23,022 bases of DNA from an uncultured Lachnospiraceae bacterium (GTDB taxonomy: Bacteria > Bacillota > Clostridia > Lachnospirales > Lachnospiraceae). The stretch covers positions 1-23,022 of the forward strand of contig CAPFLK010000011.1 of assembly GCA_948612235.1 (NCBI GenBank). Reading direction: 5' to 3'. The notes below the pieces were generated by a model. That model was not told the origin of the DNA and did not search any database. It saw only the letters and a program-made list of their open reading frames with translations. The translations under genes and the position numbers were made by a program. How positions within the stretch are numbered: the stretch's first letter is position 1; every line of letters starts with the position of its first letter. Shown here piece by piece: positions 6,338 through 10,785 of this stretch.

Positions 6338-7519
6338 TTAACCATTGTGCTTCAATAGATATTCTCTCGACACATTTTTGAAGCTCTGCTGTCCATCAAC
6401 ACTTCGGTATACGAACCCCTCTCTTTTTACCTTTGGATTGATTTCACTATACCCATCAGCTTCCAGCTTCATTTCTTCCATAGTCTTAGGCAACACATAT
6501 TCTGTATCAGTAATTGGCACATTCTTTAATCCATTCTGTTCGCAGAATTTAGCCATATCTACGGTTCCAAGACGTACACCGTCAACAATCAGATTGAATA
6601 CAAATAACTCATTCTCTTTCAGCTTATATGGATTACCTTGAACTGATCCAACACCCTCTCCTTGGAGAACCACTCTGTTATATCCATTCTCCATAGCAAA
6701 CTTAGTCAAAATAATTTCAATGCCATACTTATCTGCCAGCTCCCAATAGATATTTGACTCATGATATGTTTCCTGATTTCTATCTGCCTGTCTTACATTT
6801 CTACTACAAACAATAAACTCAAACTTATTCTTCTTGATTCTGTCTACAGCAAATGTGCAGCTTGTTCCATCTAATTTTTCTGTCTTAATCCACTTATTAG
6901 TACTTTCCAGATAAAACGGAGCATTCTCAATTCGTGTTTCGTCTGTCTTAACAATCCACTTGGGAAACTCTTTCGGATTATCTTTCTTCTTGCCAAAGAA
7001 CAGGAACATGATTTTTCTGCCAAGTTTATATCTCATAATCTTTCGCACAAATGGTCTACTAAACAGCTTCTTGTGTCTCTGAGCCATAGATTTATATTTT
7101 GCATCTGGATCTACGTTGTTGGACTTTCTCTTAACATCTTCTTCACAAGAATAAGTAATTTTAAGACTTTCAGTCACGTCCGATCCAATAGCATTATCAC
7201 TCAACTCTGGAAATAATGAAATCGGGAGTGCAAGTCCCTGACTAATAACCTTAAATTTCCCTAGCTTCATTGTTTTTACCTTATAATGCTTTGTTGCTAA
7301 GAAAGCAAATCTTTCATCAGATTCAGGACATTTACTATCAATTTCAATGTACACGGCTAAATCTCCTGGCTTAAACTCTTCTTTCTTTGCGATACAAACC
7401 CATCCAAGGACTCCAATAAGTTCAATATTATCTGCTCCATCAATCGGTCTTACCCACTCAATTTTTTCAATATGTGCCAATGCTCTATCTGCCATATTAA
7501 ATTTCTCCTTTTCTCTCAA
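6338..7519 (-). CDS. ATP-dependent RNA ligase, Rnl5/DraRnl-like (N-terminal OB-like domain plus nucleotidyltransferase domain).
   Basis: KxDG adenylylation motif TEKLDGTS. Candidate motif IV EGxV (QGEGVG / REGFVY). N-terminus IEWVRPIDGADNIELIGVLGWVCI...GDLAVYIEIDS resembles the N-domain of DRB0094-type RNA ligases. Confidence 0.6.
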   Translation of the reverse strand: MREKEKFNMADRALAHIEKIEWVRPIDGADNIELIGVLGWVCIAKKEEFKPGDLAVYIEIDSKCPESDERFAFLATKHYKVKTMKLGKFKVISQGLALPISLFPELSDNAIGSDVTESLKITYSCEEDVKRKSNNVDPDAKYKSMAQRHKKLFSRPFVRKIMRYKLGRKIMFLFFGKKKDNPKEFPKWIVKTDETRIENAPFYLESTNKWIKTEKLDGTSCTFAVDRIKKNKFEFIVCSRNVRQADRNQETYHESNIYWELADKYGIEIILTKFAMENGYNRVVLQGEGVGSVQGNPYKLKENELFVFNLIVDGVRLGTVDMAKFCEQNGLKNVPITDTEYVLPKTMEEMKLEADGYSEINPKVKREGFVYRSVDGQQSFKNVSREYLLKHNG

Positions 7520-8390
7520 AAATCAACCTATTCGTATTAAATCCAGCAGCTCCCTTATGACCTCCACCACCATATTTCTTTGCAATATTAGAAACATCCA
7601 CAGTTTTTGAATACATACTATATGTCCATGTACCATTCCTTCCATTGAATGAAAATGGCATTAAAATATCATATAAATCGTCATCCACAGATTTAAACCA
7701 ATCACTACCAGCAAGTCCAACATTCATTGCATACACTTTATATCCCTCAAATTCTGTTTCAAAACCTTTGGACTCACAGTATTCTTTTGCAAAACTATCA
7801 CGATACTTGATGATTACTTTTCCTTCTTCAATATATTTATTCTCCGCATCATCATCTAAAAGGTTATACCAAATCTCGTTATCTGGGCTTTTATCGTATG
7901 CATCAAATCCCATATGAAAATATCTTGTATCAGCACCATATTCAAAAGCCCATACATCATAATCAGCAATATATTTTGTAAACATAGGTGCATCTTTTGT
8001 CATAGAAATATCAAATTTTTTCGGATTGCCACCTCCTCTTTCAGTCATATGATGTAACCAACAATATGTAAGCATACAAGCGGCTATCCCGTCATATCTA
8101 ATTCCACGAATAGGAATTTCAAAATCCGTATATCTTTCTATTGCTGATTTATGATGATCAATCCAGGTTACATCTTTTGTTATTTCTAACAGTTTTCTCA
8201 TTTCGTCTGGCATAATTGAATAGTCAACAATATATACCTGCTCATTAGGATTTATCTTGTCAAAAGAAAATTCCATTCCATAATTGATAGGAATAAATTC
8301 TGACTCATATCCATCATATACTCCTGCACTTAAATACACCCAAAATGCAGCACATTTCCCATCATCATCTACATGATAAAAACACTTCAA
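7497..8390 (-). CDS. DHH-DHHA1 phosphoesterase (NrnA-like nanoRNase / pAp phosphatase, or a cyclic-nucleotide phosphodiesterase).
   Basis: DHH motif I YHVDDDG, motif II VDYS, motif III IDHH, DHHA1 motif GGGGHKGAAGF. Confidence 0.75.
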   Translation of the reverse strand: MKCFYHVDDDGKCAAFWVYLSAGVYDGYESEFIPINYGMEFSFDKINPNEQVYIVDYSIMPDEMRKLLEITKDVTWIDHHKSAIERYTDFEIPIRGIRYDGIAACMLTYCWLHHMTERGGGNPKKFDISMTKDAPMFTKYIADYDVWAFEYGADTRYFHMGFDAYDKSPDNEIWYNLLDDDAENKYIEEGKVIIKYRDSFAKEYCESKGFETEFEGYKVYAMNVGLAGSDWFKSVDDDLYDILMPFSFNGRNGTWTYSMYSKTVDVSNIAKKYGGGGHKGAAGFNTNRLIFERKGEI

Positions 8391-8405: not shown

Positions 8406-9767
8406 TTAAAATTTTATCCAACCATCTCTAACACCTGTCATCCAATAAACCAAATCATCTTTATTATTTTCTAATTCTCCATCTATAACACATTTCAGTA
8501 TCTCATTTAACCAATACCCAATATCTTTACCTTCTTTGAGTTTCATCACCTCTTTTACATCGTTACCATTAACCGCTAAATCCTTTAATGAGAAACAAGA
8601 TTTCTCAGATAATATTTCTTCAAGAATATTTTCTATATTATTTATTTTCTCTATCCGAGATTCTTCATAATCCGGTTTTTGTCCTTTAATATCCGCTTTC
8701 CTGACTTCTAACAACCGCCTAAACTGCTTTTCACCGATTTTATTAAGCCATCTCTTAACATACTTCTTTCCAACTTCAAAAGTAGCATCGTGATAATATA
8801 CCAGTTCTACTACATTATTTCTGGTTTCATTATCAAATCTAAGACGTTTCATAATAGTGTCAGTAATATCAGAACTTACTTTTCCATGACCTTTAAAGTG
8901 CCTAATACCATCTTCTCCATCCTGATAAGAATGTGGCTTCCCAAAATCATGAAAGAAAACTGCAAGCCTTACAATTAAATCATCCGATTCACATTTCTCT
9001 ATCGCATGTACTGTATGATCAAATACATCATATGCATGATATGGATTATCCTGTTGAAAACCTATCATATCTTTTAATTCTGGGATAAATAAAGAGAACA
9101 CATCGGGATACAAAACTAATTCCACACAGAACTGATTAGAAGCAACTATTTTACAAAATTCACTGTTAATTCTTTCAACGGAAATATTCTTTAACCGCTC
9201 ATATTGTCGATCTATTTCAAACATTGTTTCTGGAAACCCTGCAAAACCTAACTGTGCTTCAAATCTTATTGCTCTGAGTATTCGCAGAGCATCTTCATTA
9301 AACCTGTCTTCTGCGGATCCAACACATCGAATCTTTTTATATTTGATATCCTCCATGCCATTAAACGGATCAATTAAACCAGTTTTAGGATTGTATGCCA
9401 TAGCATTAATCGTAAAATCTCTTCTCCGTAAATCTTCAACCAGATTCTTTGTAAATGTTACATTATCAGGTCTACGATTATCAGAGTAATCTCCGTCAAT
9501 CCGATAAGTTGTTACCTCAAATGGTTCCTTATTTATTAAAATTGTTATTGTGCCATGCTGAAGACCAGTCGGAATAATTTCTTCATTGGGAAATGCCTTC
9601 AATATCTCATCAGGAGCGGCAGATGTGCATATGTCATAGTCATGTGGTTTTCTTTCCAACACGCTATCCCTTACACAGCCGCCTACCATGTATGCCTCAT
9701 GTCCACATTTCTCTAATTCCTGCATGATATAACTTACTGATACAGGAACTTCTATACTAAATCTCAT
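8406..9767 (-). CDS. cca: tRNA nucleotidyltransferase (CCA-adding enzyme, class II) with an HD phosphohydrolase domain.
   Basis: Head-domain GGCVRD plus metal-binding DYD. HD motif HDFGKP. Length 453 aa fits the Pol-beta head, neck and HD architecture. Confidence 0.8.
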   Translation of the reverse strand: MRFSIEVPVSVSYIMQELEKCGHEAYMVGGCVRDSVLERKPHDYDICTSAAPDEILKAFPNEEIIPTGLQHGTITILINKEPFEVTTYRIDGDYSDNRRPDNVTFTKNLVEDLRRRDFTINAMAYNPKTGLIDPFNGMEDIKYKKIRCVGSAEDRFNEDALRILRAIRFEAQLGFAGFPETMFEIDRQYERLKNISVERINSEFCKIVASNQFCVELVLYPDVFSLFIPELKDMIGFQQDNPYHAYDVFDHTVHAIEKCESDDLIVRLAVFFHDFGKPHSYQDGEDGIRHFKGHGKVSSDITDTIMKRLRFDNETRNNVVELVYYHDATFEVGKKYVKRWLNKIGEKQFRRLLEVRKADIKGQKPDYEESRIEKINNIENILEEILSEKSCFSLKDLAVNGNDVKEVMKLKEGKDIGYWLNEILKCVIDGELENNKDDLVYWMTGVRDGWIKF

Positions 9768-10785
9768 TTTTCACCACTCTCTCATTCACACTTGCTACAA
9801 ATTCATTGATCCGCTTATAATCTGGATTATCAGGAAGACTCGTATTATTCTTTGCATACTCTAACTTCTTCTCGTAATCATCAACCATTTCATAAAATTC
9901 AGGAATTGGTTGTCTGTCCACATCAAGAAACTTTCCATTACGAATATCCATAAGAAGTTCATGCTCTTTTTCTCTATATGTTACAATCTTTTCATGTTCA
10001 AGAATATCAAGACACATCATATAAAGCCTGATAAGGTGCATCATGTGCTTTCCCAGCTTATTATGTTCAATGGCATTTTTATTTCTCTTGCCAATCTTAG
10101 AATAATCCTTCACAACATTATTCATTTCAGACCACATTGACTTATAATCTCTCAATGGATAATGATGTAAATTTACATCCATAAAAATTTCTGTATCATA
10201 CTCTTCTTGTTCAGATTTATCAATATATAATCTGATATTATCTTCTTCAAAATGAAAATACTTCTCTGGGAAAGTATGAAATGCGTTCATAATACTGTTT
10301 AGAATATGTCTTTCTCTCTGTTCCTGATTAACTAATCTAACAGCTTTATTGTCCAACCGCCTTAATTGTGCTGTCGCATATCCTCCAAAAGAATACGCTG
10401 CTCGCTTGGATAAGAATAAATGAGAATTATTAATCAATTCTTTTCCAATGTTTGATACATATAAATAATGTTCTGGTTTATTCCCAAGTAGCTCAATGGT
10501 GTTAGGATTGCAATTACTTAGCAGAGAAATCAACTTATTGAATGAGTAAATTGTTGTATCAGTCGCTTCATTTACAAATTGTTCAAAATTTTCATTTGTG
10601 AGAATCTGCATTTTACTATTTAACGCACAACCACGAACATCCAGATCACTATTCTCATTATTAGTTCCATAAGCATGACTTCCTCCGAGTGTCAAGAGAA
10701 TGATATTATTACCTAAATTTTTATCTTCTCTCAGGAAATCATATTCACTTGTTTTCAATACTTCTTTAATTTGTTCAATATTCAT
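9757..10785 (-). CDS. Pol-beta-superfamily nucleotidyltransferase, tentatively of the RNA-ligase-associated RlaP type (could also be another minimal NTase or a CD-NTase).
   Basis: N-terminal GS...SDLDVRG (GS followed by [DE]x[DE]) NTase motif. Helical C-terminal region. 11-nt overlap with the CCA gene. Confidence 0.5.
   Translation of the reverse strand: MNIEQIKEVLKTSEYDFLREDKNLGNNIILLTLGGSHAYGTNNENSDLDVRGCALNSKMQILTNENFEQFVNEATDTTIYSFNKLISLLSNCNPNTIELLGNKPEHYLYVSNIGKELINNSHLFLSKRAAYSFGGYATAQLRRLDNKAVRLVNQEQRERHILNSIMNAFHTFPEKYFHFEEDNIRLYIDKSEQEEYDTEIFMDVNLHHYPLRDYKSMWSEMNNVVKDYSKIGKRNKNAIEHNKLGKHMMHLIRLYMMCLDILEHEKIVTYREKEHELLMDIRNGKFLDVDRQPIPEFYEMVDDYEKKLEYAKNNTSLPDNPDYKRINEFVASVNERVVKNEI

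Follow-up and report, generated by a model that had tools for sequence, protein, structure and literature searches.

What do four adjacent genes at positions 6338-10785 of contig CAPFLK010000011.1 do together? This question is raised by a 23,022-nucleotide (nt) stretch of DNA, which was analysed at its full length and is called the window, while the four genes are called the cassette. The initial annotation had read them as an RNA repair cassette, possibly for tRNA, with a nucleotidyltransferase, a CCA-adding enzyme, a DHH phosphoesterase and an RNA ligase. Our analysis makes it probable that the cassette is a phage RNA repair module, most likely one for tRNA. Its four genes are probably co-expressed, and their products would counter tRNA-damaging toxins of the host or of rivals. 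The enzyme families, their intact active sites, the operon-like packing of the genes, the selection acting on them and the conservation of their neighbourhoods all argue for this reading. tRNA damage has emerged as the way in which many bacterial defence systems work, and PrrC, RloC, PARIS, retron-Septu, OLD, Cas13, MenT and CapRel are named as examples in a 2026 preprint. The phage answers known so far are replacement tRNAs and the ligation of tRNA fragments in the style of phage T4.

Gene layout and enzyme families

The window has a GC content of about 33% and carries nearly all its plausible genes on the minus strand. In the list of open reading frames (ORFs), the cassette is filled by four consecutive co-directional minus-strand ORFs (Table 1). 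RlaP and CCA genes overlap by 11 nt. The stop codon of the CCA gene is separated by 15 nt from the TTG start of the DHH gene, and the AAGGAGGG ribosome-binding site of the latter overlaps this stop. Only 1 nt lies between the DHH stop and the ligase ATG at 7495, which is preceded by an AAGGAG site. This spacing suggests co-translation, a terminator scan found no minus-strand terminator-like sites inside the cassette, and the four genes are probably expressed as a single unit. Wherever the synonymous divergence (dS) was measurable, the ratio of nonsynonymous to synonymous divergence (dN/dS) was 0.03-0.42, which indicates purifying selection on all four genes. The cassette goes far beyond a chance run of ORFs. 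The genes and all motifs quoted in the initial annotation were found where it had placed them, its four domain calls were borne out by profile and PDB searches, and its ORF coordinates could be kept except at the ligase. The start of this gene is almost certainly the ATG at 7495 and not the TTG at 7519, because homologues and the Naegleria gruberi enzyme NgrRnl align from this methionine and gene callers on identical contigs also give 385 amino acids (aa).

The nucleotidyltransferase matched the RlaP family in Pfam (PF10127) at 65.4 bits (cut-off 23) over profile positions 14-143 of 249, and phrog_388 matched at full length (residues 6-340, 5e-55). We located the motifs GGSHAYG and SDLDVRG, and found that GGS 34-36, D47, D49 and D76 are kept in at least 97% of 42 homologues. 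The protein thus carries the Pol-beta signature with three strictly conserved aspartates, the criterion used for RlaP in a preprint (PMC12776372). RNA ligases and repair genes were found alongside RlaP both in the window and in its relatives. Pseudomonas RlaP adds 1-2 nucleoside monophosphates to an RNA 3'-OH and prefers a mimic of cleaved tRNA (PMC12776372); by analogy, the RlaP of the window is predicted to add 1-2 nucleotides to damaged RNA 3'-OH ends. With PADLOC, none of the four cassette proteins matched a CD-NTase, a component of cyclic-oligonucleotide-based antiphage signalling systems (CBASS) or a partnered effector. A CBASS operon or another CD-NTase defence operon, which the initial annotation had kept in mind, was rejected on this result, and the PF10127 match likewise separates the protein from the CD-NTases.

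The second gene product showed Pfam matches to the PolyA_pol head (4e-39), to the HD domain (27.5 bits, cut-off 22) and to tRNA_NucTran2_2. It exceeded the cut-off of the NCBIfam CCA equivalog PRK13299 (301.3 versus 290 bits), and its HD region also aligned to PRK10885, the multifunctional CCA addition/repair protein. The CCA enzymes 6ibp and 1miv of the PDB matched at an E-value of 1e-59, and residues 14-229 aligned without gaps to 6ibp, the flexible loop included. GGCVRD, DYD, RRRDF, EDALR and FFHDFGKP were located in the sequence, and 14 homologues retain motifs A, B and D as well as the HD motif. The protein thus has a class II head with motif A (GGxVRD...DxD), motif B (RRD), motif D (EDxxR) and a full-length flexible loop. 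The conserved H...HD...D residues of the HD domain lie in DHTVH (H), FFHDFGKP (HD) and YYHDAT (D).

For the DHH protein, we obtained a match to phrog_4771 (1e-46) and Pfam matches to DHH and DHHA1 that were under the gathering score. The motifs HVDDDG, IVDYS, IDHHK, ADYDV and GGGGH were all located, and motifs I-IV and GGGH are invariant among 45 homologues (H6, D8, D10, D56, D78, H79, H80, D143, D145, G275-H278). An AlphaFold2 model (pLDDT 93.6) was matched by Foldseek with a probability of 1.00 to many DHH-DHHA1 structures. The top matches were stand-alone enzymes (6mtz, DhhP, NrnA of M. tuberculosis, TmPDE, PggH, Pde2, pAp phosphatase), and RecJ ranked behind them. Identity to solved members was 10-20%, with a sequence match restricted to the GGGH region. 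Taken together, sequence and model identify the protein as a divergent stand-alone member of the DHH/DHHA1 superfamily with the two-domain fold, from a family of about 2,600 homologues. An assignment to NrnA or NrnB by sequence was tried and failed: the NCBIfam NrnA model gave 18.6 bits against a cut-off of 350, and the PDB profile match covered the GGGH region alone. Relatives of the protein are labelled 'oligoribonuclease NrnB/cAMP/cGMP phosphodiesterase', DHH superfamily, by JGI. NrnB-family enzymes work from the RNA 3' end, and a long C-terminal extension marks those active on long RNA (PMC12709177). The protein of the window ends 19 residues past GGGGH and hence lacks this extension.

Some members of this DHH family carry a C-terminal P-loop kinase-like domain (phrog_4182, Walker A AFPGCGKT), such as P0124 (L229:10001-11377) and P0129 (L230:2346-3734). 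Stand-alone phrog_4182 copies (L055:3802-4308, L057-L061, L063) lie near Thg1, RlaP and ligase genes, and one DHH::P-loop fusion lies 3.1 kb downstream of RlaP-X-CCA-RtcB, where X is a gene described below. The hhalign comparison of this domain with a PNK-type kinase gave 94%, a value that covers the Walker A-Asp segment alone and is non-discriminating, and a PDB sequence search yielded no match for the domain.

The fourth protein matched the PHA02142 OB domain (82 bits), RNA_ligase PF09414 (66 bits) and phrog_968 (1e-62). In phmmer, it aligned to NgrRnl (5cot) across both domains with an E-value of 1.5e-38, and motifs I, III, IV and V (KLDG, LQGE, REGFV, SFK) were brought into register; the longer motif KLDGTS was also located. 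This match speaks for an Rnl5 enzyme and not for a DNA ligase or a capping enzyme, an outcome by which the initial annotation had wished to be judged. The TIGR02306 score of 92 bits was under the equivalog cut-off of 151, and the two domains are separated by a Lys-rich insert of about 60 residues. By sequence, the protein is best described as a divergent Rnl5 member that is not a TIGR02306 equivalog. The assignment to a family is firm for RlaP, the CCA enzyme and the ligase.

Gene neighbourhoods and mosaic history

We compared about 240 related loci and took a census of gene order in 28 distinct CCA-bearing loci. RlaP was located directly upstream of the CCA gene, or with only gene X between them, in 22 of the 28. 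A DHH gene followed directly after the CCA gene in 19 loci, often with a gap of 0-20 nt; it was of either of two types, between which identity is only 25%. Where the slot after the CCA gene lacked a DHH gene, it was filled by Thg1 (two loci), RtcB (one), a second Rnl5 (one) or a kinase-phosphatase-Rnl1 fusion (L164). The latter gene (L164:11376-13574) encodes a 732-aa fusion of an AAA_33 kinase, a calcineurin-like metallophosphoesterase and Rnl1 directly after RlaP-CCA, and the RlaP and CCA proteins of this locus are 96% and 86% identical to those of the window. A ligase of some kind was present in the flank of 12 of the 28 loci. DHH and RlaP genes also met in other layouts, namely RlaP-DHH (L155) and DHH-266 aa-sigma factor-RlaP paralogue (about 50 loci), and the C. 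difficile phage AR1086-1 carries KptA and RtcB within 10 kb of RlaP. Gene X is uncharacterised, has about 1,600 homologues, sits in the module of most relatives and is predicted to have a polymerase-like palm fold. A further observation concerns L234, where a Thg1-like 3'-5' polymerase split into 162 aa of Thg1 and 127 aa of Thg1C (L234:4896-5770) lies about 5 kb past the point that corresponds to the right end of the window; genes for a PemK toxin and for Abi_alpha are found near it.

RlaP-CCA is a fixed core, and the rest follows the modular part-swapping pattern that has been reported for RNA repair systems. The comparison of the about 240 loci supports RNA or tRNA repair. The repair-operon logic proposed initially stands insofar as RlaP-CCA recurs beside DHH, Thg1, RtcB, Rnl5, the fusion and KptA, but conservation does not extend to all four genes as a unit.

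A near-identity DNA search of deposited phages gave no match to the window. Many relatives were found in IMG/VR on contigs of 90-216 kb, and DHH genes that are 96-97% identical lie inside RlaP-X-CCA-DHH blocks in Lachnospiraceae bacterium A4 (mouse gut) and Eubacterium plexicaudatum ASF492. In these two genomes the blocks belong to prophages (KE159538.1 and AQFT02000004.1) and have no ligase. On these grounds the element is a large phage of Lachnospiraceae that is probably temperate. The exact arrangement of the window was seen again in several metagenome contigs, and a 55-kb contig from ENA matched its right half. Positions 6315-10825, which comprise exactly the four genes, are 97% identical to IMG/VR contig 3300006143_000333, and on both flanks different gene islands follow. 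Synonymous divergence between the window and its closest relative rose from RlaP (0.00) over CCA (0.01) and DHH (0.10) to the ligase (0.31), and the ligase therefore has a separate history. In some relatives, CCA and DHH are shared at 87-94% nucleotide identity, RlaP is diverged, another gene stands between RlaP and CCA, and the ligase is missing. Others have the ligase and the downstream ABC-transporter island in common with the window and lack RlaP, CCA and DHH. In many genomes, ligase and DHH genes are about 40 kb apart, and recombination breakpoints coincide with gene boundaries. These data suggest that the cassette is a recent mosaic of a conserved RlaP-CCA-DHH block and a ligase that usually resides elsewhere beside a kinase-HD gene. 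The four genes are thus only partly a unit.

This kinase-HD gene, which encodes a 296-aa protein with an AAA_33 P-loop kinase and an HD domain, directly follows Rnl5 in 63 of 80 ligase-centred loci (L011:11174-12064 and 62 others). The protein is a functional analogue of Pnkp. When it was used as tblastn query against the window, it matched the HD domain of the CCA gene and nothing else. Since 63 of the 80 ligase loci have the gene and the window has none, the cassette would be a kinase-less derivative of a usually kinase-bearing lineage. The visible part of the genome comprises 23 kb and, on the contig that matches the right half, about 10 kb more to the right of the window, where the split Thg1 lies about 5 kb past the right end and no kinase was found; the genomes of relatives measure roughly 90-220 kb. 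Leftward, contigs with the exact arrangement of the window end at the gp5.9-like gene, still within the window, and other contigs that share this gene are mosaic. The earlier conclusion that the absence of a kinase points to a 3' truncation or a 3'-phosphate as the lesion is weak in view of the 63 kinase-HD loci, the fusion in L164 and the 23 kb that are visible. As seen, the module would seal only breaks that already bear a 5'-phosphate, or it would depend on a kinase encoded elsewhere. Breaks with a 5'-phosphate are expected from metal-dependent nucleases.

Proposed RNA repair and competing explanations

We propose the following sequence of events. A ribotoxin would break or trim a tRNA, and the damaged 3' end would then be cleaned to a 3'-OH by the HD domain of the CCA enzyme, by the DHH protein or by both. 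Phosphohydrolase activities reside in the HD domain of the E. coli enzyme; the DHH protein might act as 3'-phosphoesterase or as an NrnB-like short-range 3'-to-5' trimming exonuclease. Next, an internal 3'-OH left by a break would be extended by RlaP with 1-2 untemplated nucleotides, an activity known from Pseudomonas RlaP, and the acceptor end would be rebuilt by the CCA enzyme. The last step would fall to the ligase, as Rnl5 enzymes seal nicks with 3'-OH and 5'-phosphate ends. We infer the substrate, the succession of events and, most of all, what the DHH protein does; that it takes part in 3' healing is a reasonable inference.

Several observations weigh against repair as the joint function. 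No P-loop kinase domain was found in any ORF of the window, and a pattern scan, a method that can miss diverged copies, did not return the kinase-HD gene on a near-identical 129-kb contig. Without a kinase, the ligase would be unable to seal the 5'-OH breaks of metal-independent anticodon nucleases. The ligase was acquired separately from RlaP-CCA-DHH, and the exact four-gene order is confined to the lineage of the window, i.e. to 3300006143_000333 and a few metagenome contigs. Among the closest structures of the DHH protein in Foldseek are dinucleotide and cyclic-dinucleotide phosphodiesterases. When we inspected ten genome loci with DHH genes, five that hold members further from that of the window were not beside repair genes (two on contigs too short to judge), and when four more distant members were looked up, both informative contigs lacked adjoining repair genes. 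The link between DHH and repair genes is restricted to the lineage of the window and is not family-wide. Finally, tRNA and Rfam scans of the window detected no tRNA, tRNA-like RNA, Y-RNA or other known non-coding RNA.

One competing explanation is phage tRNA maturation, in which the CCA enzyme, perhaps with DHH as a 3'-trailer trimming exonuclease and with Thg1, would finish phage tRNAs that are encoded without CCA, with RlaP and the ligase carried along separately. It gains some weight from six relatives (L138, L146, L148, L056, L061, L156) whose tRNA genes lie no more than a few kb away from the module, and from the finding that none of 12 phage tRNA genes in CCA- or ligase-bearing loci (L138, L146, L148, L056, L061) encodes a 3' CCA. 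However, neither the window nor its closest relatives (L004, L085-L088) contain a tRNA gene, and Firmicutes hosts already need a CCA enzyme of their own. Moreover, ordinary maturation has no part for RlaP, which is the tightest partner of the CCA enzyme, nor for the ligases, RtcB and kinase-phosphatase fusions of the slot. We consider this explanation unlikely, and tRNA repair and tRNA maturation are compatible with each other. A further and more novel proposal makes the DHH protein a dedicated 'eraser' of tRNA 3' ends, which would strip 2',3'-cyclic phosphates or 3'-phosphates, the 3'-pyrophosphate of the CapRel type or nucleotides added by MenT-type toxins, so that the CCA enzyme and RlaP could rebuild a chargeable end. 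This would be acceptor-end repair against tRNA-modifying defences that needs no kinase, and X, which most relatives have in the module, could be a new templated RNA-repair polymerase. We regard this proposal as possible but rather doubtful.

The DHH protein might also work outside repair, as a neighbour in a mosaic early-gene region that breaks down immune signals made of cyclic or linear oligonucleotides (anti-CBASS, anti-type III CRISPR) or as a nanoRNase recycling host RNA into nucleotides. The substrates of its Foldseek matches GdpP, Pde2, PggH, TmPDE and NrnA are pApA, pGpG and c-di-NMP, distant members of the family are found away from repair genes, and an adenylosuccinate synthetase gene directly upstream of one DHH::P-loop fusion fits nucleotide salvage. 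Our literature search, the coverage of which did not extend to the paper by Burroughs and Aravind (2016) that reportedly named RlaP, found DHH enzymes not tied to RNA repair. The sole paper retrieved with both DHH and RNA-repair terms, a survey of jumbo phages, files phage DHH enzymes under counter-signalling (PMC7824862). Against such a role, two DHH types with only 25% identity share the position after the CCA gene in 19 of 28 loci, DHH is tied to RlaP in two further arrangements, and slots without DHH are filled by RNA-end enzymes; we thus judge a function outside repair to be quite unlikely. Still more improbable, to a degree that we hardly expect it, is the absence of any joint function, with adjacency created by modular recombination and four independent enzymes, the ligase acting for example on nicks in RNA-DNA hybrids during replication. 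The different history of the ligase, its distance of about 40 kb from DHH in most relatives and the breakpoints at gene boundaries fit such a scenario, but the shuffling repeatedly draws on one guild of RNA-end enzymes, as expected of a module with interchangeable parts, and the gene spacing suggests co-translation.

For a specialist, a phage RNA-repair cassette as such is no surprise. RlaP beside ligases and phage CCA enzymes have been described already, RlaP, CCA enzymes and ligases for instance as RNA-repair genes of jumbo phages (Iyer et al. 2021, PMC7824862). What is new is the DHH enzyme in the healing slot of a cassette centred on RlaP-CCA and the contrast between kinase-less and kinase-bearing versions. 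If repair is the function, the wide spread of the RlaP-CCA cassette suggests that large gut phages of Firmicutes have a broader set of repair tools, in which three enzymes are of interest: the DHH protein, the HD domain of the CCA enzyme and the predicted palm-fold protein X of the relatives. The kinase-less window and its kinase-bearing relatives form a natural comparison that could reveal the lesion chemistry with which each of the two versions deals.

Flanking genes and known systems

The features of the window are compiled in Table 1.

Table 1. Cassette genes and other features of the window
Feature	Position	Strand	Size and details
RlaP-family Pol-beta nucleotidyltransferase	9757-10785	-	342 aa
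Class II CCA-adding tRNA nucleotidyltransferase with embedded HD phosphohydrolase domain	8406-9767	-	453 aa
Stand-alone DHH-DHHA1 phosphoesterase of NrnA/NrnB-like architecture	7497-8390	-	297 aa; TTG start
Rnl5-type ATP-dependent RNA ligase (N-terminal OB and nucleotidyltransferase domain)	6338-7495	-	385 aa; ORF runs to TTG at 7519
gp5.9-like protein	607-1209	-	200 aa; C-terminus matches T7 gp5.9 RecBCD-inhibitor domain (1e-15)
Membrane island	1984-6263	-	ABC permease, ABC ATPase, 179-aa protein, PspA-like protein, substrate-binding protein fused to OmpA domain
YAcAr/SLOG-domain ORF	11800-12288	-	N- and C-terminal parts unlike relatives
Major-vault-protein-like protein	12359-14803	-	814 aa; MVP_shoulder 8e-22, Vault_3, Band_7/SPFH; 1.6 kb upstream of cassette
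C5 cytosine methyltransferase	16298-17635	-	
HNH endonuclease	17748-18458	-	
DNA-methyltransferase fragment	18451-18972	-	
Stretch without convincing ORF	18972-19826		About 850 bp; no Rfam family match
Small HD-type metal-dependent phosphohydrolase	19826-20296	-	phrog_990, 6.5e-13
Reverse-transcriptase region	21278-22321	-	209-aa ORF (PADLOC RT 2e-25), then separate 128-aa ORF

The island of the vault-like gene is absent from the closest relative. Among seven IMG/VR relatives, four have the gene shortly downstream of Thg1 and, 6-8 kb upstream, an Rnl5-like ligase, and two others have the ligase about 5 kb downstream. The vault-like protein could be a scaffold for RNA repair. The gp5.9-like protein is of interest in light of a 2026 preprint, according to which the OLD tRNase is activated when RecBCD function is lost; it is a speculative thought that a phage inhibiting RecBCD may particularly need tRNA repair. 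The cassette ligase is followed 72 nt on by the ABC permease gene of the membrane island. L233 and the closest relative (L004) carry a P-type cation ATPase and TerD in place of this island, and a vWA/TerF-like protein between the two is annotated in L233 only. At the position of the reverse-transcriptase ORFs, related contigs carry a single 345-aa RVT_1 gene, and the copy of the window thus looks split or truncated. Within 16298-18972, the HNH gene lies between the two methyltransferase genes and may be a homing-endonuclease insertion. The unusual ends of the YAcAr/SLOG ORF may stem from a frameshift or from a start that was wrongly assigned.

When the single enzymes are compared with characterised proteins, the ligase has the two-domain architecture and the catalytic motifs of NgrRnl and of DraRnl from Deinococcus radiodurans. 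It differs from them by its Lys-rich insert and by its score under the TIGR02306 cut-off. The CCA enzyme resembles the multifunctional enzyme of E. coli in its class II head, its HD domain and the alignment of PRK10885 to the HD region. However, its head and neck are closest to the Bacillus type, and its phosphohydrolase activity is assumed from homology. The DHH protein shares the two-domain fold and the metal-binding and GGGH motifs with the nanoRNases NrnA and NrnB and with stand-alone DHH-DHHA1 phosphodiesterases, but its identity to any solved member is in the range of 10-20% and its setting is a phage RNA-repair cassette.

At the level of whole systems, the window has its closest counterparts in the RlaP-associated repair systems of bacteria and jumbo phages (PMC7824862, PMC12776372). 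These also place a PF10127 RlaP beside an RNA ligase and RNA-end enzymes, have a modular syntax with swappable parts and count phage CCA-adding enzymes in the same guild. In the window, RlaP is paired first with CCA/HD and then with DHH-DHHA1, and a kinase is lacking. The characterised RlaP proteins, in contrast, sit in RtcB-RtcA operons (Carruthers et al. 2025, PMC12776372). Like Pnkp and Rnl1 of phage T4, the cassette would be a phage answer to tRNA damage in which end healing is followed by ATP-dependent ligation. It differs from the T4 system in that it has no polynucleotide 5'-kinase, that the candidate phosphoesterases are of the HD and DHH types and not HAD, that the ligase is Rnl5 (OB and nucleotidyltransferase domains) and not Rnl1, and that two nucleotide-adding enzymes are present. 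The sister cassette L164, unlike the window, carries a fusion of kinase, metallophosphoesterase and Rnl1 in the slot that is occupied here by the DHH and ligase genes.

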